Origin: an uncultured Acidobacteriota bacterium
GTDB taxonomy: Bacteria > Acidobacteriota > Thermoanaerobaculia > UBA5066 > Gp7-AA6
DNA length: 64,000 nucleotides
Assembly (NCBI GenBank): GCA_963733815.1
Contig: CAVTEG010000015.1
Span: 171,910 to 235,909 of the forward strand
Reading direction: 5' to 3'
This document shows positions 1-64,000 of the stretch, piece after piece. Position 1 is the first letter of the stretch. Each line of letters begins with the position of its first letter. The notes under the pieces are model-generated. The model was not told where the DNA came from. It worked only from the letters and a program-made list of their open reading frames with translations, and ran no database searches. Made by a program: the position numbers and the translations under genes.

Positions 1-171
1 CGAACCGCGCGAGAGCCTCGGGGGAGCCCGCGAAGCGCTCGGGCAGCACCTTGACGGCGACCTCGCGGCCGAGGCGCGTGTCACGCGCGCGGTAAACCTC
101 CCCCATTCCGCCCGCGCCGAGCGGGTCCACGATCGCGTAGGGGCCGAGCCGGGCATCCGGAGCCAGGGTCA
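1..171 (-). CDS. Ser/Thr protein kinase, N-terminal fragment (gene continues beyond window start)
   Basis: Minus-strand translation from ATG at 171 gives [45 protein letters not shown]. This is the glycine-rich loop plus VAVK lysine motif of a Hanks-type kinase. It is truncated by the window edge. Confidence 0.5.
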
Positions 172-9928: not shown

Positions 9929-10609
9929 CTACCCCTCCGGCGAGAAGCGGTATCCGACCCAGGGCTCCGTCCGGATCCAGTGCGGCTGGTTCGGGTCGTC
10001 CTCGAGCTTGCGCCGGAGGCTTCCCATGTGGACGCGGAGTGTGTCGTTCGTGACCCCGGCCGTGGTGCCCCAGACGGCGGCGAGGAGCTGGCGGTGAGTC
10101 CACACGGCCCCGGGCTTTTTCAGCAGAGTCACGAGGATCGAAAACTCGATCGGCGTCAGATGGACTGGCCGGCCCGCCTTTTGGACGGTCCGGGCTTCCG
10201 GGTCGACCTCGATGTCCGCCCATCGAGTGATCGTCTCGTTCCGGGCGGCTTCGCGCCGCCGCAACAACGCACGGGCGCGCGCCAGAAGCTCGGCGACACC
10301 GAAGGGTTTGGTCACGAAATCGTCCGCTCCCGCGTCGAGAAGGCGGACCTTCTCCCGCTCTTCGCTGCGCACGGTGAGGATCAAGATCGGGACGCTGGAG
10401 CTGCGGCGGATTTCCTGAACCAGCTCGAGGCCGCCCACGCGGGGCATGGCGAGGTCCGTGACGATGAGGTCGAACCGTCCCTCCTCGAACTCCTCGAGCG
10501 CCTCGTGGCCGTCGATCGCCGAGACGACGTTATGGCCTTCCCGCTCAAAGGCATCGCGAACGACTTTGCGGATCCCGGGCTCGTCGTCCGCGACGAGCAC
10601 CCGGCTCAC
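9929..10609 (-). CDS. kdpE: OmpR-family response regulator KdpE
   Basis: The receiver domain carries the DD/D/K signature (VLVADDEP..., LIVTDLAMP), and a winged-helix output domain follows. It overlaps the kinase gene by 4 nt. Confidence 0.9.
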   Translation of the reverse strand: MSRVLVADDEPGIRKVVRDAFEREGHNVVSAIDGHEALEEFEEGRFDLIVTDLAMPRVGGLELVQEIRRSSSVPILILTVRSEEREKVRLLDAGADDFVTKPFGVAELLARARALLRRREAARNETITRWADIEVDPEARTVQKAGRPVHLTPIEFSILVTLLKKPGAVWTHRQLLAAVWGTTAGVTNDTLRVHMGSLRRKLEDDPNQPHWIRTEPWVGYRFSPEG

Positions 10610-12045
10610 GCGGCGCTCCGGGGGAGAGCGATCTCGAAGAGGGTTCCTCCGCCTTCGGCTTCGCTGAGCCGCAGGCGCCCTCCGTTCAGGGCGACGAGGC
10701 TCCGAGCGATGAAGAGGCCGAGCCCGCTGCCGGGCACCTGCGCATCATCCTCGAGACGGACGAACCGCTCGAAGACGTGTTCGCGCTCGGAGGCCGGAAC
10801 TCCCTTGCCCTGGTCGGCAACGCGGATATAGACGGCGTTTTCGTCGGAGGCGACCCAGACGCGGATGGTGGAGCCGGCGGGAGAGTAGCGGGCGGCGTTC
10901 TCGAGACCGTGGCCGAGGGCCTCCGTCAGCTGCGCCGGGTCGACCTCGACGGTCAGCCCCTGGGCCGGCGGGTCGATAAAGAGGCTATGTTCCGCGAGCG
11001 CGTCGCCGAATCGCGCCACGGCCGCCTCCACGATCTCTCCGCAGCTGACGGTTTGCGGGCGCGGCCGAGCGGTACCGGCGTCGAGGCGGACGACGTCCAT
11101 CAGTTCGGCGATGCGGCGGCCGAGGGTCGAGAGCTGCTCGCCGGCCAGCCTCGAGGCCTCCGAGCCGCCGCTCGATGCTTCCCAGTTCTCGATGGCGCCG
11201 CGCGCGGCGGCAACCGGGGTCTTCAGGTCGTGAGCGAGCTGGGCGAGCAGCGTCGACTTCATCTGCTCGCTCGTCCTCGTCTCTTCGCCCGCCCGCGCCA
11301 GGCGCAGAAACCGCTCGCGCTCGACGGCAAGCCCGAGCAGGAGCGCGCAGGCCTCGGCCATCCGCTCGCTCGACCGCAGGCCGCGCGCGACGAGGGTCCC
11401 CGCGCGCTGGAGCCCGACGGGAATCGGGAGATAGATGTCGGTGCCTCCGAGATCGGAGGGATACGCCGCGGAGTTGCCCTGCCGGAACGCCAGCTCGGCG
11501 AGGTCGTGGCGGACCTCGACGTCCCCCGTCGCCGTCCGCTGCGAGAGCTCGCCCTTCTCGTCCGCCAGCAGGATGGCGACCTGCTCGCAGTGGAGGGCCT
11601 GCCGGAGACGGTCGGCCGCGACGCCCAGCAGCGTCTCGCGATTGGTGTCGGTCAAGAAGCCTTGCGAGAGCTGCGTCAGCCCGATCAGGTCGCGGCGCTC
11701 GGACTCGAGCAGTCCGAGCCGCCGCCGTGAAATCGCCGAGAGCCGCCCGATCAACAAGCCCGAGACGAGGAAGACGAAGAGGGCGGAGACGTTGCGCGGA
11801 TCCTGGATCGTGAGCGTATAGAGAGGCGGCAGGAAGAAGAAGTTGAACCCCAGCGTCGCGACCAGCGCCGCGACGACGCCCGGGCCGCTCTGCCAGACCG
11901 AGGCGCAAAAAAAGACGGCCAGCAGGAGGAGCAGTGCGACGGAGGAGTCCGTCAGCTCCGGAAAGAGCTTGAGGAGCCCGACCGTCGCCGCGACGACGAG
12001 GATGGACGCCGGGTAGCCGATCCACTTCCTCGTCGCGATCTTCAT
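10606..12045 (-). CDS. kdpD: KdpD C-terminal half: 4-TM domain (DUF4118), GAF, HisKA and HATPase (split KdpD, part 2)
   Basis: The sequence contains FNFFFLPPLYTLTIQDP (KdpD TM signature), the H-box HDLKTP and the G1/G2 boxes. It lacks the N-terminal KdpD/Usp domains, which are encoded at 2778-3914. Confidence 0.9.
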   Translation of the reverse strand: MKIATRKWIGYPASILVVAATVGLLKLFPELTDSSVALLLLLAVFFCASVWQSGPGVVAALVATLGFNFFFLPPLYTLTIQDPRNVSALFVFLVSGLLIGRLSAISRRRLGLLESERRDLIGLTQLSQGFLTDTNRETLLGVAADRLRQALHCEQVAILLADEKGELSQRTATGDVEVRHDLAELAFRQGNSAAYPSDLGGTDIYLPIPVGLQRAGTLVARGLRSSERMAEACALLLGLAVERERFLRLARAGEETRTSEQMKSTLLAQLAHDLKTPVAAARGAIENWEASSGGSEASRLAGEQLSTLGRRIAELMDVVRLDAGTARPRPQTVSCGEIVEAAVARFGDALAEHSLFIDPPAQGLTVEVDPAQLTEALGHGLENAARYSPAGSTIRVWVASDENAVYIRVADQGKGVPASEREHVFERFVRLEDDAQVPGSGLGLFIARSLVALNGGRLRLSEAEGGGTLFEIALPRSAA

Positions 12046-56273: not shown

Positions 56274-58463
56274 TCACCACGCCACGGACTGCACCCAACG
56301 CTTGAGCACGCGCCACGCGCGCGCCGCGTAAGAGGCGCGCCTTCCATAGATCTTGGCGTAACCGTGCATTCCGGCGTAGAGGCTGCCGTCCTCGTTGTCA
56401 AAAACGGCGAGGGCCACGAAACGCTCGGGCTGCTCCTGGGGCGCCGAGGGATCCGCATTCGCCGCGGCGGTCTTGGGTTGTGCGAGGGCGGCCGGGGCGA
56501 TCGAGACGATCGTGCCGTGAACGGGCCGCGGATGCCCGAGGAAAAGCGCGGTGACCGGCGCGTTCGGCACGAGATCTTCGAGAAGACGTTCGGAAACGGT
56601 CAGGTCCGCCGCCATCCGCCGGTCCTCGCCGACCTCGGCGAGAAGAGTCCCCGCGGGCACGGAGCGCCCTTCGAGGTCGCGTACGTAGGGAGTCAGCAAG
56701 TGCCCCGTCGAAGGGCTCTTCACCAGCAGGCGCTCCTCGCGGGCACGTCCGTTCTTCAAGGCCGCGTCGAGGGAGACGCCCCGGGTCTCGGATGCGAAGA
56801 CGCGCGCCGGCTCGGCGGCCTGCCGCGCCAGGCTCGCGTCGCGCGTCGCGCGCTCGCGCTCGGAAGTGAGCCGCTTCGTCGCTTCCGACGCGGCCGCGCT
56901 GACGAGCTGGAAGACCGGCTGCCCGGCCGTCACGCGATCCCCCTCCTGGGCGAGCGCGCGCGTCACGACCCCGTCTTCCGGAGCCTCCAGTCGGATCGTC
57001 ACCGTGGGCCGGAGCAGGGCGGGTGAGCGGAGTGTGCGCCGGCTCCAGGGGAGGAAGAACAGCAGGGCGAGCACGGCGGCGCCGGCGAAGAGCGCCGCGC
57101 GGATACGGTGCGACATGAGCAGCTCCTTCTTGTCGAGATAGAAGAGATGGCCCGTGCGCGTGACCAGGCGGACCCGCTTGCGAAAGAGGCGGTACAGCGT
57201 CAGGACCAGGAGCACGATCGCCCAGTTCGGGAAGAAGTGGTGGTAGAGGTTGTAGAGGAGCCCGCCGATGAACCGCATGACGACGCCCACCCACGCCAGC
57301 GCGAGCGAGCCGAAGATCCAGTAGATCCGGCGCTTGCGCCGTGAGACCAGGGGCACCTCGACGGGAAGCCTCAGCACGTATCGCTGGAAGCACGCCCCGA
57401 TGTAGCGGAACGATTCCTCCCGCAGGTCCGGAATTTCGAGCACGCTCGAGAGCGCGTAGTAGCCGTCGATCTTGATGAGCGGGTTGATGTTGAAGAAGAC
57501 CGTCGAAACTCCCGTGAAGAGCATCGTCTTGAACGCGATCTCGTGCACAAGAGTGTCGGGATAGGAGACCACCCACGCGAGCGTGGCCACCGAACACATG
57601 ATGGCCTCGATGTAGATGCCCGCCGTCGTGACCCAGAGCCGGTGCCACTTGTTCGTGAAGAGCACCGAGTCGGTCGTGTCGCAGTAGAACGCCGGCGTGA
57701 AATAGAGGAGCGCCAGGCCTATGTCGTGGACTTCGCCGCCGTAGATTTTGGTGACGTACGCGTGCGAGAACTCGTGGAACAGTCCGATGAAGGTCAGAAT
57801 GCAGAAGAACTGCACGACATCGAGAAGTGGTTTCGACGTCAACGCGTAGAGCTCGATCGTTCCGCTCCAGATCGCCCCCCAGTGCACGAGGATGACCCCG
57901 AAAGCCCAGCCGGCGAAGATCAAAGCCGCCGCCACGACGGGAGGCGTCCAGATCCAGCGCACGTACTTCACGGTCCGGTCCAGGAAGCGGTTGGGGTCGA
58001 GGACGTGGAAGAGCAGGAAGAACGGGTTGAAGCCCTCGGCCTTCTCCTCGGCGGCGCGCTGGCGGGCCGTCTTCGCGTTCGCGAGGAGCTTGAGGTTCCT
58101 CTCGGCCGCGGACTGCGCGATGAGGCCCATCTCGCGGAGCATTTCCGCGTACTCGCGGACGACGGCCATCTCGATCTTCTCGCGTGGGAACATCGCCTGG
58201 TACTCGGCATGGATCTGCGCCAGCGTCCGCGTCCCATCGAACATCTGGCAGAGCCCCCACTCGGGGTCGTCGAAGTTGTAGTACTTCGTGGTCTCCGGGT
58301 TCTTCACGACCCAGTTGATCTCGCCGAGCTGCACGACGCGCCGGATCACCGCGTCCGATCGGATGGCCGGGCGGTCGCTGGCGATGCCGTGACGGGCCGC
58401 GAGGGCCGCCGCGCCTTCTTCCGGGCGCGTGGCGGCGAGCAAACGTCCGGGGCGCGCGCTCAC
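56274..58463 (-). CDS. Tri-domain protein: PqqD-like RRE domain - M50/S2P-like zinc metalloprotease - HlyD-like adaptor
   Basis: The GTG start overlaps the upstream stop (GTGA). The N-terminus IRRVVQLGEINWVVKNPETTKYYNFDDPEWGLCQMFDGTRTLAQIHAEYQ...EYAEMLREMGLI fits the PqqD/RRE profile. The membrane core has HEFSHAY (HExxH) and NPLIKIDGYY (S2P NxxPxxxLDG motif). The C-terminus has a biotinyl-lipoyl-like segment, a coiled coil and a beta-barrel segment. The 384 codons of the track ORF upstream of the GTG overlap the neighbouring gene and are spurious. Confidence 0.75.
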   Translation of the reverse strand: MSARPGRLLAATRPEEGAAALAARHGIASDRPAIRSDAVIRRVVQLGEINWVVKNPETTKYYNFDDPEWGLCQMFDGTRTLAQIHAEYQAMFPREKIEMAVVREYAEMLREMGLIAQSAAERNLKLLANAKTARQRAAEEKAEGFNPFFLLFHVLDPNRFLDRTVKYVRWIWTPPVVAAALIFAGWAFGVILVHWGAIWSGTIELYALTSKPLLDVVQFFCILTFIGLFHEFSHAYVTKIYGGEVHDIGLALLYFTPAFYCDTTDSVLFTNKWHRLWVTTAGIYIEAIMCSVATLAWVVSYPDTLVHEIAFKTMLFTGVSTVFFNINPLIKIDGYYALSSVLEIPDLREESFRYIGACFQRYVLRLPVEVPLVSRRKRRIYWIFGSLALAWVGVVMRFIGGLLYNLYHHFFPNWAIVLLVLTLYRLFRKRVRLVTRTGHLFYLDKKELLMSHRIRAALFAGAAVLALLFFLPWSRRTLRSPALLRPTVTIRLEAPEDGVVTRALAQEGDRVTAGQPVFQLVSAAASEATKRLTSERERATRDASLARQAAEPARVFASETRGVSLDAALKNGRAREERLLVKSPSTGHLLTPYVRDLEGRSVPAGTLLAEVGEDRRMAADLTVSERLLEDLVPNAPVTALFLGHPRPVHGTIVSIAPAALAQPKTAAANADPSAPQEQPERFVALAVFDNEDGSLYAGMHGYAKIYGRRASYAARAWRVLKRWVQSVAW

Positions 58464-60919
58464 GGCAGAAGCGGCCAGATCTTGTTCCAGAGATACCGGA
58501 GAGGCTTCCGGAACAGCGCCGTGATGACGCGCCGCGTGCCGACGGAGACCTTGCCGTTGCCGAGCATGCCGGTCTTCAGCCTCCCGTCGGAATTCGGAAC
58601 GGCCACCTCGGCGATCAAGAAACGCTGGTCGCCTTCCTCGCGGATCCGGGGCGCGACGCGGGCGACTTCTCCACGGAAGAGCGTCCCGGGGTAGGGGTTG
58701 AACTTCAAAGCCGTCTTCTGGCCCGGCCGGACCAGGGCCGCGTCGGCCTCGGGAACGGCGACCTCGGCCGTTACGGTGCGAACGTCGGCGACGACGCAGA
58801 GCTCCGCGCCTCGCGGAAGAAGCTGACCGACCCTCTCCTCGATCCGCGGAGTCACGATGATGCCGGCGGCAGGTGCAGTCAACCGGGTGCGCGACAGGCG
58901 GTCTTCGGCGAGAGCGATGCGCGCGCGGGCCTCGCGCCGGCGCGCCTCGGCGTCGAAAACAGCGCCGGCGTCCGCATTCTGGCGCGACCGCGCAACGTCG
59001 ACGTCCGAAAGCGCCAGCGCCGACTTGGCCTCCGCCAGCGCGGCCTGGTAGCTCTCGTCCTTCAACGTCGCGATGACGTCGCCGGCCTCCACACGGTCGC
59101 CCTCCCGCCGCAGCACGGCGCCGACGACGCCGTCCACCATCGACGTGACGGCGGCGCGGCGGCCCGGGAGGACCCGTGCGGGCCCGGTGATGCGCAGGGG
59201 CCACGGTGCGACGAACAGGATCAGGGCGGCGACGGCCGCGCCGATTGCCCATCGCCGTCGGCGGGACAACGGGATCGCCGAGAGCTTGCGCTGCTTCTCC
59301 AGGAGCGGTTTCCAGAAGCCGGCCAGCGGCACCTGCTGGTAGAGCTGCGCATTGCGGACGGCCACGGTGGCCTGGTTGACCAGGATCGACAGGAGGTCTC
59401 GCGTCTCCTCTTCGAACACCAGCGGCTCCTTGCTCTCGAATCCGAGAGCGCCGAGCTTTCCTTCCTCGTCCTTGAGGAGGACGCCGTAGAACGACCTCAT
59501 GCCCGTTTCCTGGAAGATCGCCCGGAACTTCTCCTCGGTCTCGGGCCGGTCGGCGGTGATCGCGCCGTCCTCGGTCTGCGTCACCGCGGTGTCGGTCCCG
59601 GAGAGGAAGATCCACTGAAGCAGCTCTTCCATCCGCCGGGCCTCGGGGTTTTTCCGGTCCACCTCGGTCGTGCCGGAGAGCGCCCCCAGCCGCAGCTTCC
59701 CCTTCTCCTGGATCGCAATCCCGCAGCTGTCATAGTGGATCAACGCCGAGGTGGCGTTGACGATCGTCTGCATGACCTTGTCGAGATCGAGCGTGGCCGT
59801 GATCTCTCGGGACACGGCCAGGAGCGCGTCGAGCTCCTCGACCTTCTTCTCGGCCTCGTGCTGCCTCGCCGTCCGCAGGGCCCGGACGGCCTGGCGGGCG
59901 ACGTCCTGCAAAAGCTCCTCGTCCTCGGCCGAGAACTCGGGGTGCCGGCCGCGCTTGTTGGCGAGGACGAGCGCTCCGATCGTGATTTCTTCTTCGACGA
60001 GAGGCGCCGCCAGGACCGACTGGATCGGATAGCCGGTGTCCTCCTCCGCCCCCGGGTCCCCGGCGGGAATGCGGTTGCGCCGTACGGACGTCTGATCGGC
60101 GATGACGTCGCCGACGATCGAGGCGCCGACCGCCTCGGGCGCCGGGGTGACGTCGTAGTTCTCGTTGACGGCAGTGGCGGCCAGGTTGACCTCGCCCTTC
60201 GCGCTGTCGAGCACCCAGAGCGACGCCGATTCGGCCGTGACGAAGTCCGCGGCCTTGCGAACGATCAGCGCGGACAGCTCGTCGGTGTCGATCGTCGAGC
60301 CGAACGCCTTCGAGAGGTCGTAGAGGTTGGTCAGCCGCTCGATCGCGTGGAGCATGCCGACGGTCTTGCGCTCGGACCGCAGCGCCCGTCCCAGAGCCGG
60401 CGCCGCCTGCTCGAGGAATCTCTCCAGGCGCGCCAGCGCGTCTTCGGCGTCGGGCATGTGGCTGAAGTAGAGAGCGAGGAGTCCCACCACAAGGCCCTCG
60501 GCGTGGAGCGGCACCGCGAGGCAGGCGCGGAGCGTCGGGGGCAGCCCCCGCACGAAGGGATCGGAGGTTGCCAGCTCTTCTCCGGTCAGGACGATGGCCT
60601 GACGATCGCGGACCAGGTCATGGATGATGCCGGTCTCGCGCGGCGCCGATCGCCTCAGGAGCTTGTCGACTCCCGGGCCGGAACCCGCGATGCAGAGGAA
60701 CAGGGGATGAACGGTGTCGGGAGCCCAGAGCAGCGCGGCCTCGGCACCGGTCATGGTGATGCTCCATCGCGCCGCCCATCCCGACGTCTGCGAGAGGTTC
60801 TCGCAGAGGGCCAGCTCGGCGAGAGCCGAGACCTCGTCTTCGGACCCCGAGACGTGGTGCTCGGACTCGTCGGCCTCTTCGACCGGTTCGTCTTCCGTAT
60901 CTTCGGGCTCGTCCGCCAT
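58460..60919 (-). CDS. Triple-GAF-domain protein fused to a TM segment and a HlyD-like adaptor
   Basis: An acidic N-terminus is followed by three GAF-like modules (about 60-480 aa), a TM helix (WAIGAAVAALILFVAPW) and an MFP-like C-terminus (biotinyl-lipoyl-like segment, coiled coil, beta-barrel). Confidence 0.75.
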   Translation of the reverse strand: MADEPEDTEDEPVEEADESEHHVSGSEDEVSALAELALCENLSQTSGWAARWSITMTGAEAALLWAPDTVHPLFLCIAGSGPGVDKLLRRSAPRETGIIHDLVRDRQAIVLTGEELATSDPFVRGLPPTLRACLAVPLHAEGLVVGLLALYFSHMPDAEDALARLERFLEQAAPALGRALRSERKTVGMLHAIERLTNLYDLSKAFGSTIDTDELSALIVRKAADFVTAESASLWVLDSAKGEVNLAATAVNENYDVTPAPEAVGASIVGDVIADQTSVRRNRIPAGDPGAEEDTGYPIQSVLAAPLVEEEITIGALVLANKRGRHPEFSAEDEELLQDVARQAVRALRTARQHEAEKKVEELDALLAVSREITATLDLDKVMQTIVNATSALIHYDSCGIAIQEKGKLRLGALSGTTEVDRKNPEARRMEELLQWIFLSGTDTAVTQTEDGAITADRPETEEKFRAIFQETGMRSFYGVLLKDEEGKLGALGFESKEPLVFEEETRDLLSILVNQATVAVRNAQLYQQVPLAGFWKPLLEKQRKLSAIPLSRRRRWAIGAAVAALILFVAPWPLRITGPARVLPGRRAAVTSMVDGVVGAVLRREGDRVEAGDVIATLKDESYQAALAEAKSALALSDVDVARSRQNADAGAVFDAEARRREARARIALAEDRLSRTRLTAPAAGIIVTPRIEERVGQLLPRGAELCVVADVRTVTAEVAVPEADAALVRPGQKTALKFNPYPGTLFRGEVARVAPRIREEGDQRFLIAEVAVPNSDGRLKTGMLGNGKVSVGTRRVITALFRKPLRYLWNKIWPLLP

Positions 60920-60971
60920 GCGCCTCCTCGGTGGACACGACTTGGGCCGGGTGCCAGACGGGTCTGACCCC

Positions 60972-61307
60972 TCAGAAGCTGGAGACCGCGGCCTCCATGT
61001 CGTCGTGGATCTCGAACACCGAGTCGAGCTTGGTCATCTGGAGGAGCTTGCGAATCTGGGGGCCGGCGCGGAGGAGCTTGGTCTGGCCCCCTTCCTTCTG
61101 CGACTGCGTCAGCGCCCGCACCAGAGCTCCGAGGCCCGAGCTGTCGAGGAAGCCCACGCCCGAAAGATCCACGAGCAGACGGGTATGGCCCTCCTCCAGC
61201 AGACGCGTGACGGTCTTCTTGAAGGTCGACTCGGCGTCGCCGATGACGAGGTCTCCCGTCACGGTCAGCACCGTTACGGAGCCGTCTTCATGAGTTTGAA
61301 GTTCCAT
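60972..61307 (-). CDS. STAS-domain protein (anti-sigma-factor antagonist SpoIIAA-like)
   Basis: A 111-aa ORF. The LVDLSGVGFLDSSGLGALV motif contains the conserved phosphorylatable Ser region. Confidence 0.8.
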   Translation of the reverse strand: MELQTHEDGSVTVLTVTGDLVIGDAESTFKKTVTRLLEEGHTRLLVDLSGVGFLDSSGLGALVRALTQSQKEGGQTKLLRAGPQIRKLLQMTKLDSVFEIHDDMEAAVSSF

Positions 61308-61404
61308 GGAACCGGGGCATTATGCCAAAAGCCGAAGATGTCGGGGGCCGCAGCGGTTTCGGGGCGAAACCGGCGGTATTGGCCGAGCGCCATATGATCC
61401 CGCC

Positions 61405-62424
61405 ATGCCGACGCTCGATCGACGTTCCCTCTTTTCTCTCGGCGCCGCCTCCTATTTCCACGCCCTGCTGGGCCGCGCCCTCGTGCCCGGCGTTTCGCCA
61501 CAGGGGGTCAAGACCGCGGGCATCCGGATGATCCCGGTCGACGGGAAGTACAAGGTCTGGACGAAGAAGCTCGGGTCGGGAACGATCCAGATGCTGACTC
61601 TGCACGGCGGTCCCGGCATCACGCACGAATACTTCGAGTGCTTCGAGGATTTCCTGCCGCAGGCGGGTGTGGAGTTCTACTACTACGATCAGCTCGGATC
61701 TTTCTACTCCGACCAGCCCGACGATCCGTCGCTCTGGACCATGGATCGATTCCGCGAAGAGGTCGAACAGGTGCGGGCGGCCCTGGGGCTGGAGCACTTC
61801 ATCCTCTATGGGCAGTCGTGGGGCAGCATGCTCGCGATCGAGTACGCCCTCAAGTACCAGAAGCATCTCAAGGGTCTCGTCCTCTCGAGCATGACCGCGT
61901 CGATCCCTTCCTACATGAGCTATGTCGCGAAGCTCCGCGCCGCGTTGCCCGAGGACCTGCTCGCCACGCTCGAGAAGTACGAGGCGGAAGGAAAGTACGA
62001 CGCGCCCGAATACCAGGACGCGATGTACAAGAGCGTCTACCTCCGCCACGTCTGCCGCGTCGATCCCTGGCCGGATCCCGTCGCGCGCGCGTTCAAGCAC
62101 ATCAACAACCAGGTCTACGGTACGATGCAGGGACCCAACGAGTTCGTCGTCACAGGGACCTTCAAGGACTGGGACCGCTGGAAGGACCTTCCGAAGATCA
62201 CGGTGCCGACGCTCCTCATCGGCGCGCGCTACGACGAGATGGATCCCGAAGACATTCGTAAGATGGGCCGTCTCATTCCCAACTCGCGCGTCGTCATCTG
62301 CGACAACGGCAGCCACCTCGCGATGTGGGACGACCAGGAGGCGTACTTCGCCGCTTTGATCCCGTTCCTGCACGAGGTCGAGAAAGGCCGGTTCACCGGC
62401 TCGAAGACTTCGCCGCGCTCGTGA
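61405..62424 (+). CDS. Proline iminopeptidase family alpha/beta hydrolase (S33), Tat-like signal
   Basis: HGGPG, the GQSWGS nucleophile elbow and the catalytic Asp/His regions are present. The N-terminal signal is MPTLDRRSLFSLGAA. Confidence 0.8.
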   Translation: MPTLDRRSLFSLGAASYFHALLGRALVPGVSPQGVKTAGIRMIPVDGKYKVWTKKLGSGTIQMLTLHGGPGITHEYFECFEDFLPQAGVEFYYYDQLGSFYSDQPDDPSLWTMDRFREEVEQVRAALGLEHFILYGQSWGSMLAIEYALKYQKHLKGLVLSSMTASIPSYMSYVAKLRAALPEDLLATLEKYEAEGKYDAPEYQDAMYKSVYLRHVCRVDPWPDPVARAFKHINNQVYGTMQGPNEFVVTGTFKDWDRWKDLPKITVPTLLIGARYDEMDPEDIRKMGRLIPNSRVVICDNGSHLAMWDDQEAYFAALIPFLHEVEKGRFTGSKTSPRS

Positions 62425-63179
62425 GCGCCTCGGAGGGAAGGGGACGTCTCCTCGTCTTTTCCGACCCCGCCGCACTCGCGCGCGCGGCGGCGGACGACTT
62501 CGCCCGCCGCGCCTCGGGCTCCGTAGCGGCACGGGGGCGCTTCACGGTCGCGCTCTCCGGCGGCACGACTCCCCGGCGCCTGTACGAGCTTCTGGCGGGG
62601 GAGCCTTACCGTGCCCGGGTTCCCTGGGAGAAGACGCACCTCTTCTGGGGGGACGAGCGCCACGTGCCTCCCGACGATCCGCAGAGCAACTACCGCATGG
62701 CGCGGGAGGCGCTGCTCTCCAAGGTTCCCATCCCCGAATCCAACGTGCATCGCACCGAGGCGGAGCTTCCGGACGCGTCCGAGGCGGCCGCGCGGTACGA
62801 CGGCGAAATCCGCCGCTTCTTCGAGCTCCCTCCGGGACAGTTTCCGAGCTTCGACCTGATGTATCTCGGGCTGGGTCCTGAGGGGCACACGGCTTCGCTC
62901 TTTCCGGAAACCACGGCTCTCGAGGTCCAGGATCGGCTGGTCGTCGCGACCTGGGTCGCCAAGCTCGACGCGGACCGGATCACGATGACCTATCCGGTCT
63001 TCCGCGAGGCGTGCGCGGTCGCCTTCCTGGTGGAAGGCGCGAAGAAAACCGAGATCCTGGCCGCCGTCCGAAACCCGGTGACGGCCGCGGACTACCCGGC
63101 CGGGCGCATCCACCCCCGTGAAGGCGAGCTTCTCTGGTTCGCCGACCGGGCCGCGGCGGGAACCGGGTCTTCGACCTAA
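62421..63179 (+). CDS. pgl: 6-phosphogluconolactonase
   Basis: The GTG start overlaps the upstream stop. The motifs ALSGGTTP, HLFWGDER and LGLGPEGHTASLFP are present. Confidence 0.8.
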   Translation: MSASEGRGRLLVFSDPAALARAAADDFARRASGSVAARGRFTVALSGGTTPRRLYELLAGEPYRARVPWEKTHLFWGDERHVPPDDPQSNYRMAREALLSKVPIPESNVHRTEAELPDASEAAARYDGEIRRFFELPPGQFPSFDLMYLGLGPEGHTASLFPETTALEVQDRLVVATWVAKLDADRITMTYPVFREACAVAFLVEGAKKTEILAAVRNPVTAADYPAGRIHPREGELLWFADRAAAGTGSST

Positions 63180-63441
63180 GGGCTTCTTCAGAAAATCGTT
63201 GGGAGTCCTTTTCCGATGGTTTCCGGCAAATCCGTAAGGGCCCTCACCCCGTACAAGACGAGGAGGCAGGAACCGAGTTCGGGGCGTCCGGAGGCTTGAA
63301 ACCGGGGGAGCGGCTATAAGATCTCGCGATTCAACCGGTCCGGTACGCGAACCGGGTTGGCGAGTCACTCGACGAGGCCATGGCGGTCTCGCCGATTCGT
63401 TGGGGAGCCCCCGCAAAGGGGGCAACGAAAGGAGACCTTGG

Positions 63442-63867
63442 ATGAAGAAGGGTGATCTGACGGTGAAGGCTCTCGGCCTCGCGGTCGCGGGCGTCCTCGC
63501 AGGCTCCGGCCTGATGGCGGCGCTGCCGGCCGGCGGGGTGAAGGGCGACGAGGCGAGGCCGGCTTCGACCGACGCGAAGGCCCAGGACAAGGCGGGCGCG
63601 ACGTCGGACAAGCACGTCTGCAAGGGCCAGAACGCGTGTAAGGGCAAGGGCGGCTGTAAGGCCGGCGACAACGGATGCGCAGGCAAGAACTCTTGCAAGG
63701 GCAAGGGCGGCTGCGCTTCGGCCGACATGAAGCACTCCTGCAAGGGCATGAACTCGTGCAAGGGCCAGGGCGGCTGCAAGAGCGGCGACTCCGGTTGCGC
63801 GGGCAAGAACTCTTGCAAGGGCAAGGGCGGCTGCGCGGTTCCGGTGGCTCCGAAGAAGGCGGCCTAA
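63442..63867 (+). CDS. Secreted 12-Cys repeat peptide (two tandem 6-Cys units), candidate metal-binding or RiPP metallophore precursor-like
   Basis: The signal peptide is MKKGDLTVKALGLAVAGVLAGSGLMAA. The core contains two copies of xCKGxNxCKGxGGCKxGDxGCAGKNSCKGKGGCA. A good RBS AAAGGAGA is present. Confidence 0.65.
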   Translation: MKKGDLTVKALGLAVAGVLAGSGLMAALPAGGVKGDEARPASTDAKAQDKAGATSDKHVCKGQNACKGKGGCKAGDNGCAGKNSCKGKGGCASADMKHSCKGMNSCKGQGGCKSGDSGCAGKNSCKGKGGCAVPVAPKKAA

Positions 63868-64000
63868 CTCGATCGTTCATAAACCCGGGGGCCGCGGAGA
63901 TCCCGCGGCTCCCGGGCTCATCGGACCTCCAACCTTGATGCCCGAAACCCGAAATCGCTGGAGCTTCCCCGACCTCGGTGTCGGCGTGGGCCTGCGCACG

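Follow-up and report, generated by a model that had tools for sequence, protein, structure and literature searches.

The sequence analysed here (the window) is a stretch of 64,000 nucleotides from an uncultured Acidobacteriota bacterium. Its 3' end carries, on the forward strand, the gene of a cysteine-rich precursor peptide, an intergenic hairpin and the beginning of an MNIO (DUF692) gene, preceded by a leader with two further hairpins (Table 1). The precursor ORF comprises 141 codons from an ATG at 63442 to a TAA at 63865-63867, and the first-pass annotation had delimited it exactly. Its product starts MKKGDLTVKALGLAVAGVLAGSGLMAALPAGG and continues with a polar linker, behind which two 6-Cys units lie in tandem; translation of the MNIO gene from 63938 to 64000 yields MPETRNRWSFPDLGVGVGLRT.

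Table 1 Features at the 3' end of the window, in 5' to 3' order
Feature	Position	Residues	Strand	Basis and remarks
Possible promoter element (TAAGAT, -10-like box)	63317-63322		+	about 120 nt 5' of the start codon; without a consistent -35
Leader hairpin 1 (predicted)	63375-63389		+	5-bp stem, 5-nt AUnnC-type loop (AGGCC-AUGGC-GGUCU)
Leader hairpin 2 (predicted)	63407-63423		+	GCCCCC-GCAAA-GGGGGC, directly 5' of the Shine-Dalgarno sequence
Shine-Dalgarno sequence AAAGGAG	63428-63434		+	ends 7 nt 5' of the ATG; invariant in 14/14 closest loci
bufA2-type precursor gene	63442-63867, including the stop codon		+	ORF, profile match, homologs, invariant Cys
Predicted Sec-type signal peptide	63442-63531	1 to about 30	+	charge and hydropathy profile; conserved AVAG..AG h-region
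Polar charged linker	63532-63612	31-57	+	gappy, variable in length and poorly conserved in the alignment
6-Cys unit 1	63613-63717	H58-A92	+	C60, C66, C72, C79, C85, C91; Cys invariant
6-Cys unit 2	63733-63837	H98-A132	+	C100, C106, C112, C119, C125, C131, then a conserved VP
Intergenic hairpin precursor/MNIO (predicted)	63884-63916		+	14-bp GC-rich stem, 5-nt loop
MNIO (DUF692, BufB-type) gene, first 21 codons	63938-64000, cut by the window edge		+	N-terminal similarity to BufB of locus L004

The precursor ORF is a real gene. More than 7000 homologs were found at E<=1e-3, the top one being 96% identical, and all 12 Cys residues are invariant across 50 aligned homologs, as are four Asn residues, H98 and P134. 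In comparisons with six orthologs, the nucleotide differences concentrate at codon position 3 of the forward frame (e.g. 13/9/26 and 15/14/34). Because of these homologs, the invariant cysteines and the substitutions at codon position 3, the ORF is not a product of chance. Two antisense ORFs overlap the gene on the reverse strand (62229-63824, 531 aa, and 63365-63880, 171 aa) and are regarded as high-GC artefacts, since the codon-position pattern favours the forward frame. A tblastn search of a plasmid collection with the precursor peptide gave no match, for which the low-complexity filter is possibly responsible.

Architecture of the precursor peptide

Judged from composition and hydropathy, the N-terminus has the layout of a Sec/SPI signal peptide. 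A basic n-region (MKKGDLTVK) precedes a hydrophobic h-region spanning residues 10-30 with a peak Kyte-Doolittle value of 2.4, and small residues near positions 27-30 provide candidate signal cleavage sites after A27 or A30. Neither a lipobox nor a twin-arginine motif was found at the N-terminus, and the AVAG..AG h-region is conserved among the homologs in the alignment of 50 sequences. The Sec signal peptide noted in the first-pass annotation is thus supported on this basis. Many homologs carry a 13th Cys at a lipobox-like position, which is missing in the window protein; this additional residue suggests that lipoprotein forms occur among the homologs.

The two 6-Cys units correspond to the tandem repeat described before: residues 59-92 and 99-132 both fit the pattern xCKGxNxCKGxGGCKxGDxGCAGKNSCKGKGGCA exactly as it had been written. 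The cysteines follow each other at distances of 6, 6, 7, 6 and 6 residues within each unit, with 9 residues from the last Cys of unit 1 to the first of unit 2, and residues 61-134 contain 20 Gly, 14 Lys, 11 Cys and 5 Asn, so that the regular Cys spacing and the high Gly, Lys and Asn content, both remarked on earlier, are confirmed for a core rich in Gly, Lys, Cys and Asn. Aligned with an offset of 40 residues, units 1 and 2 share 75% identity, which rises to 83% over the H..A core. At the DNA level, TRF reports a 120-nt unit present in 1.9 copies with 86% matches, and in addition a 57-nt sub-period derived from four 3-Cys sub-modules. Half-to-half identities, compared within as well as between species, were uninformative for dating the internal duplication, as all of them are about 0.80-0.85 and the identity between first halves exceeds that between first and second halves (h1-h1 > h1-h2) in 24 of 49 sequences. 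The number of domains varies among the homologs (P0020, P0023, P0043 and P0061 among them), with 6, 12, 18 and about 24 Cys residues. AlphaFold2 reached a pLDDT of 45.9 for the full protein (50 sequences) and of 48.4 for the core (107 sequences), and because of these values of 46-48 the models are not usable for the fold or the disulfide geometry.

Family assignment, maturation enzymes and operon structure

Bufferins are Sec-exported RiPPs in which Cys residues are converted to 5-thiooxazoles by an MNIO and a DUF2063 partner and which chelate periplasmic copper (Leprevost et al., PMC11626156). The only meaningful NCBIfam family for the precursor is NF050166 (BufA2 family periplasmic bufferin-type metallophore), which matches with an E value of 8.4e-14 and 51.5 bits in two stretches. 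When combined with the signal peptide and linker, either 6-Cys half suffices for a match to this family (unit 1 with 30.9 bits at profile positions 21-63, unit 2 with 35 bits), and at E<=1e-3 the family is matched by the entire aligned clade of 107 members, with E values down to 3e-22. The first-pass annotation had proposed profile searches against the bufferin family and against PF10048 (DUF2282). The former gave the significant match just described, whose score stays under the curated equivalog cutoff (60) and whose alignment covers only positions 21-63 of the 79 profile positions; the latter gave no match to the precursor at E<=10, and none of the 107 clade members matched at E<=0.01. The earlier suggestion of a bufferin-like RiPP metallophore precursor is therefore upheld by the match of both halves to NF050166 and by the adjacent MNIO gene, and that of a DUF2282-type precursor has to be abandoned. 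On these profile matches, the precursor is placed in the Buf2 (BUF_6/12Cys) bufferin family and not in the DUF2282/Buf1 family. Pfam DUF7640 matches the precursor weakly (16.8 bits, cutoff 28.1), as it does 46 of the 107 clade members; being below threshold and carrying no functional information, this assignment was rejected.

Of the Buf2 precursors, 90% have six conserved Cys residues, while the others have 12 in the form of duplicated domains (PMC12452194). BufA2-type substrates have been grouped as 'Cys-Lys' captophorins, among whose common motifs is NACKG (bioRxiv 10.1101/2025.11.18.689057), and this motif is present in the window precursor. All named homologs of the precursor are annotated as 'hypothetical protein', a label which we attribute to the sub-cutoff NF050166 score and the partial profile alignment. 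The window peptide and two of its close relatives (P0004, P0018) score 47-52 bits against the cutoff of 60. Because of these three sub-cutoff scores and the 'hypothetical' labels, the 12-Cys clade of Acidobacteriota and Planctomycetota may be systematically missed by automatic annotation.

The ATG of the MNIO gene lies 70 nt past the stop codon of the precursor gene. In a tblastn comparison, 63938-64000 is 86% identical to the N-terminus of BufB from locus L004, with an E value of 8e-8 within the window. In L004, the peptide ortholog is 87% identical to the window precursor and the next gene encodes a BufB protein of 287 aa, which scores 361 bits against PF05114. BufB of locus L002 scores 338 bits against the NCBIfam model MNIO_BufB (MNIO family bufferin maturase), above the cutoff of 310. 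The first-pass annotation had expected any modifying enzymes to lie beyond position 64000. This holds for the remainder of the MNIO gene and not for its start, which is inside the window, and the DUF2063 gene of this contig would likewise be located past the window edge; the DUF692 and DUF2063 genes predicted downstream are found in the orthologous loci, where the MNIO gene is followed by the DUF2063 gene.

The conservation of the operon was assessed in 80 species-representative genomes, the closest of which are metagenome-assembled genomes of Acidobacteriota/Thermoanaerobaculia, while others belong to Planctomycetota, Vicinamibacteria and Gammaproteobacteria. An MNIO gene on the same strand within 800 nt downstream of the precursor gene is present in 72 of the 78 loci with enough sequence. 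A DUF2063 gene accompanies the MNIO gene in 67 of 73 related loci, among them every close ortholog whose available sequence is long enough. The complete peptide-MNIO-DUF2063 operon occurs in L004, L001, L002 and L006-L014, with the DUF2063/HvfC_N gene directly 3' of the MNIO gene in L004, L001 and L002. The window and the loci L004, L001, L003 and L005 are collinear throughout the leader and the peptide gene, and also across the hairpin and the beginning of the MNIO gene. A DoxX gene, which had also been expected nearby, is not a consistent member of the operon: DoxX-like hits directly after bufC are confined to two loci (L034, L059) out of 80, and in L004 the gene after bufC encodes a glycogen-debranching enzyme (GDE_N). 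This agrees with the buf2 operon, which is devoid of DoxX (PMC11626156).

Several observations concern individual relatives. In L001, the MNIO gene after the peptide gene (10560-11367) is split over several frames, reflecting either an assembly error or a pseudogene. For one relative without an adjacent MNIO gene (L083), the contig bears the label of a Klebsiella pneumoniae metagenome-assembled genome and is probably mis-binned or mislabelled. A TonB-dependent receptor and/or an S8 peptidase is encoded directly after bufC in L001 (12231-15957), L006 (8326-10509), L008 (4369-6528), L007 (8259-9572) and L011 (8280-9731), the receptor being the one in L001, L006 and L008 and the peptidase the one in L007 and L011; neither was found at this place in L004, L010, L012 and L013. 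Since both genes occur sporadically even among close relatives, they were rejected as members of the operon.

The five genes upstream of the precursor gene encode a 6-phosphogluconolactonase, an alpha/beta-hydrolase, a STAS protein, a GAF-HlyD protein and an M50-HlyD protein, none of which is metal-related. No copper-resistance genes or regulators were found in the 7 kb upstream of the precursor gene, no SigF/NrsF-type regulator near it and no other buf-related genes within the window. The block of M50-like/HlyD, GAF-HlyD and STAS genes (56274-61307, reverse strand), which precedes the bufferin operon, shows synteny with L001 and L003. In L001 (3184-8532) and L002 (1963-7803), a second MNIO-DUF2063 operon is located just upstream of the 12-Cys operon. 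It is preceded by genes for an ECF sigma factor and/or a zf-HC2 anti-sigma factor, an HbpS-like protein and an SGL protein, and its small ORF, with a weak BufA1 match in L001, is located after the enzyme genes and not before them. This second operon is absent in the window between the STAS gene (60972-61307) and the hydrolase gene (61306-62424).

Leader and intergenic hairpins

The region between the -10-like box and the Shine-Dalgarno sequence (63317-63434) may be a clade-specific regulatory element and is the only part of the locus with some potential novelty. The bases T, A .. A, T of the box are invariant in all 14 closest loci, where it mostly reads TAGAAT or TAAGAT; it is a possible promoter element, and a strict sigma-70 consensus scan found no promoter. 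Leader hairpin 1 is part of the RNAalifold consensus of 14 loci; its loop is conserved, and compensatory changes affect two of the five base pairs. The motif is fixed at -60 to -64 from the ATG, in the closest clade only. The corresponding DNA motif GCCATnKCGGY was considered as a regulon site and rejected, as its three matches in the window (0.93 expected) represent no enrichment, the same number being reached in 8 of 100 shuffles. In 13 of the 14 closest loci, the position of leader hairpin 2 is occupied by a hairpin of the C4-6/G4-6 type whose loop varies; its stem sequence hardly differs between loci and so gives no evidence of covariation. An Rfam scan of 63100-64000 at E<=1 gave no match.

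The 110-nt region containing the hairpin between the precursor and the MNIO gene folds with -44 kcal/mol (ViennaRNA; z -2.7). A strong hairpin is found at the matching position in every close ortholog, with a different stem sequence and, in most cases, a T-tract behind it. The window hairpin has no T-tract, and a strict scan for T-run terminators was negative. RiPP operons commonly use an attenuator or stabiliser that raises the transcript level of the precursor over that of the enzymes, and the intergenic hairpin is probably such an attenuator or an mRNA stabiliser.

Proposed function and alternatives

The experimentally studied reference is Bufferin 2 of Caulobacter vibrioides. It is made from a 6-Cys precursor encoded in a three-gene operon without DoxX, is periplasmic and copper-induced, Fe, Zn and Mn having no such effect, and it protects the cells from Cu (PMC11626156). 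Each of the four central Cys residues loses 4 Da, the product absorbs at 305 nm, and CysI and CysVI are unmodified and probably linked by a disulfide bond (PMC11626156). Even in Caulobacter, the modification of Buf2 has been characterised by mass and UV only (PMC12452194).

Against this background, the window precursor is, very probably, a bufferin of the Buf2 type (BufA2; one of the 'Cys-Lys' captophorins) with 12 Cys residues in tandem units, encoded by the first gene of a bufA-bufB-bufC operon and, by analogy, serving as a thiooxazole-based copper buffer. The operon would be transcribed from a promoter 5' of the leader of about 110 nt, and the hairpin after bufA would probably raise the ratio of precursor to enzyme transcript. 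Modification would take place in the cytoplasm, where BufB, an iron-dependent oxidase, and its DUF2063/RRE-type partner BufC would oxidise the four central Cys residues of each unit to 5-thiooxazoles; transferred to the window peptide, these are C66, C72, C79 and C85 in unit 1 and C106, C112, C119 and C125 in unit 2, which would give up to eight heterocycles with a mass change of about -4 Da each. The modified protein would be exported by the Sec system, signal peptidase I would remove the signal peptide, and disulfides would be formed in the periplasm between C60 and C91 and between C100 and C131. The mature protein, basic and about 11 kDa in size, would then chelate excess Cu(I)/Cu(II) via its thiooxazoles and thereby buffer copper stress. 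For all steps from modification onwards, and for the identity of the modified cysteines and the metal specificity, we infer the course of events from Buf1 and Buf2 of C. vibrioides (PMC11626156, PMC12452194); the gene itself, its significant family similarity, its invariant cysteines, the adjacent MNIO gene and the conservation of the operon in orthologs are direct observations.

Bufferin 2 of C. vibrioides (BufA2/BufB2/BufC2, CCNA_03001-02999) shares with the window peptide the Sec signal, a Cys-Lys/Cys-Gly-rich core with the 6-Cys unit and a three-gene precursor-MNIO-DUF2063 operon without DoxX, known in our case from the orthologs. It differs in having one 6-Cys unit, whereas the window peptide has two (12 Cys, the minority form of about 10%) and in addition about 27 linker residues between the signal peptide and unit 1. 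The host of Bufferin 2 belongs to the Alphaproteobacteria and that of the window to Acidobacteriota/Thermoanaerobaculia, and unlike Bufferin 2 the window peptide scores below the NCBIfam cutoff and has no SigF/NrsF-type regulator nearby. Bufferin 1 (BufA1, DUF2282/PF10048; BufB1C1D1) follows the same logic of a Sec-exported precursor, MNIO and DUF2063 enzymes, and periplasmic copper chelation by thiooxazoles. BufA1, however, has 4 Cys residues in place of 12 and belongs to the PF10048 family, which the window peptide does not match, and its operon usually includes DoxX (BufD) and often sigma/anti-sigma genes, both of which are absent here. Buf2 clusters are likewise free of sigma/anti-sigma genes (PMC12452194).

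The Lys-Cys captophorins (oxazolin HvfA, fontiphorin FonA and gonophorin, with EGKCG repeats) also have a signal peptide and depend on an MNIO and PME1 (DUF2063); they contain several 5-thiooxazoles and are linked to copper detoxification (bioRxiv 10.1101/2025.11.18.689057). In these peptides, a 5-mer is repeated and Lys precedes Cys, whereas in the window peptide Lys follows Cys (CKG). BufB of L002, which passes the MNIO_BufB cutoff, reaches 234 bits against the HvfB model and stays below the cutoff of 360. Enzyme-substrate pairing is family-specific, since FonBC did not process an NACKG substrate (bioRxiv 10.1101/2025.11.18.689057).

A role other than copper buffering for a peptide modified in the same manner is unlikely, although it has more in its favour than the other alternatives. 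The target of such a peptide might be a thiophilic metal other than copper (Hg, Au, Cd, Zn, Ag); the peptide might also serve in metal acquisition and, like methanobactin with MbnT, hand the metal over to a TonB-dependent receptor in the outer membrane. Fusions of MerC and Buf2 occur in mercury clusters and suggest that some bufferins act on other metals (PMC12452194), and the twelve Cys residues in two domains would raise the capacity. The receptor gene directly after bufC in L001, L006 and L008 recalls MbnT of the methanobactin clusters. Most close relatives have no receptor gene there, however (a glycogen-debranching enzyme gene in L004, an S8 peptidase gene in L007 and L011, and none in L010, L012 and L013), and for this reason the receptor is not regarded as a core gene. 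Moreover, a protein of about 11 kDa that is exported by Sec should remain in the periplasm, and the only experimental data on Buf2 favour copper buffering: Cu induced it, Fe, Zn and Mn did not, and it conferred protection from Cu (PMC11626156). Methanobactin (MbnA/MbnB/MbnC, MbnT) resembles the bufferin system in that a DUF692/MNIO enzyme turns Cys residues of a ribosomal peptide into copper-binding heterocycles. It is nevertheless a short and leader-dependent chalkophore that is secreted, carries oxazolone-thioamide groups, relies on MbnC as the partner protein and has export and uptake systems of its own, whereas the window peptide has 141 aa, is predicted to be exported by Sec and has a DUF2063 partner in its orthologs, and the MNIO of an ortholog scores 51 bits against methbact_MbnB, whose cutoff is 325.

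Far less probable is an unmodified periplasmic protein, either metallothionein-like with plain Cys thiolates or disulfide-rich and structural, next to an MNIO that acts elsewhere. A sizeable share of the bufferin precursor genes is not located beside an MNIO gene, and their products might be unmodified (PMC12452194); among the relatives studied here, 6 of 78 loci have no adjacent MNIO gene. In the window, by contrast, the MNIO gene starts 70 nt past the stop codon of the peptide gene, and this arrangement is kept in the 72 other loci. In addition, free thiols would form disulfides in the oxidising periplasm and not bind metal. Metallothioneins are cytosolic proteins with CxC, CC or CxxC clusters and without a dedicated maturase, whereas the window peptide has a predicted signal peptide, a minimum Cys spacing of 6, no CC or CxC motifs, no match to a metallothionein family in Pfam and linked maturase genes. 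It is this tight linkage which disfavours the metallothionein-like metal buffer that the first-pass annotation had offered as an alternative. Finally, the reading of the ORF as a low-complexity repeat left open by chance in high-GC DNA, where spurious long ORFs are common and two antisense ones cover the same region, has a vanishingly small probability and is refuted by the conservation data, i.e. more than 7000 homologs, invariant Cys residues, the Shine-Dalgarno sequence, the bias for codon position 3 and a gene order kept across phyla.

The preferred reading as a Buf2-type bufferin makes the window gene an ordinary member of its family, as bufferins, the 12-Cys Buf2 subtype and peptide-MNIO-DUF2063 operons are known already. 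Bufferins were described in 2024-2025 and are among the commonest RiPP clusters, so that the gene adds little conceptually. For Buf2 clusters in lineages without the SigF/NrsF control of Caulobacter, we know of no regulator. The leader of about 110 nt with its hairpins and the bufA-bufB hairpin, shared by the closest Thermoanaerobaculia-like clade, could together form an undescribed cis-regulatory RNA system for bufferin expression, possibly responsive to metals or envelope stress. As a separate point, cooperative binding of several metal ions could set the tandem 12-Cys form apart from single-domain Buf2 in function. We regard this extended proposal as improbable. In the literature, we found no experimentally studied 12-Cys member of Buf2, and the strongly conserved 12-Cys clade would be a reasonable target for counting the thiooxazoles and metal ions of a tandem bufferin. 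The conserved leader and the intergenic hairpins may likewise provide a starting point for work on the regulation of Buf2 operons outside Caulobacter.
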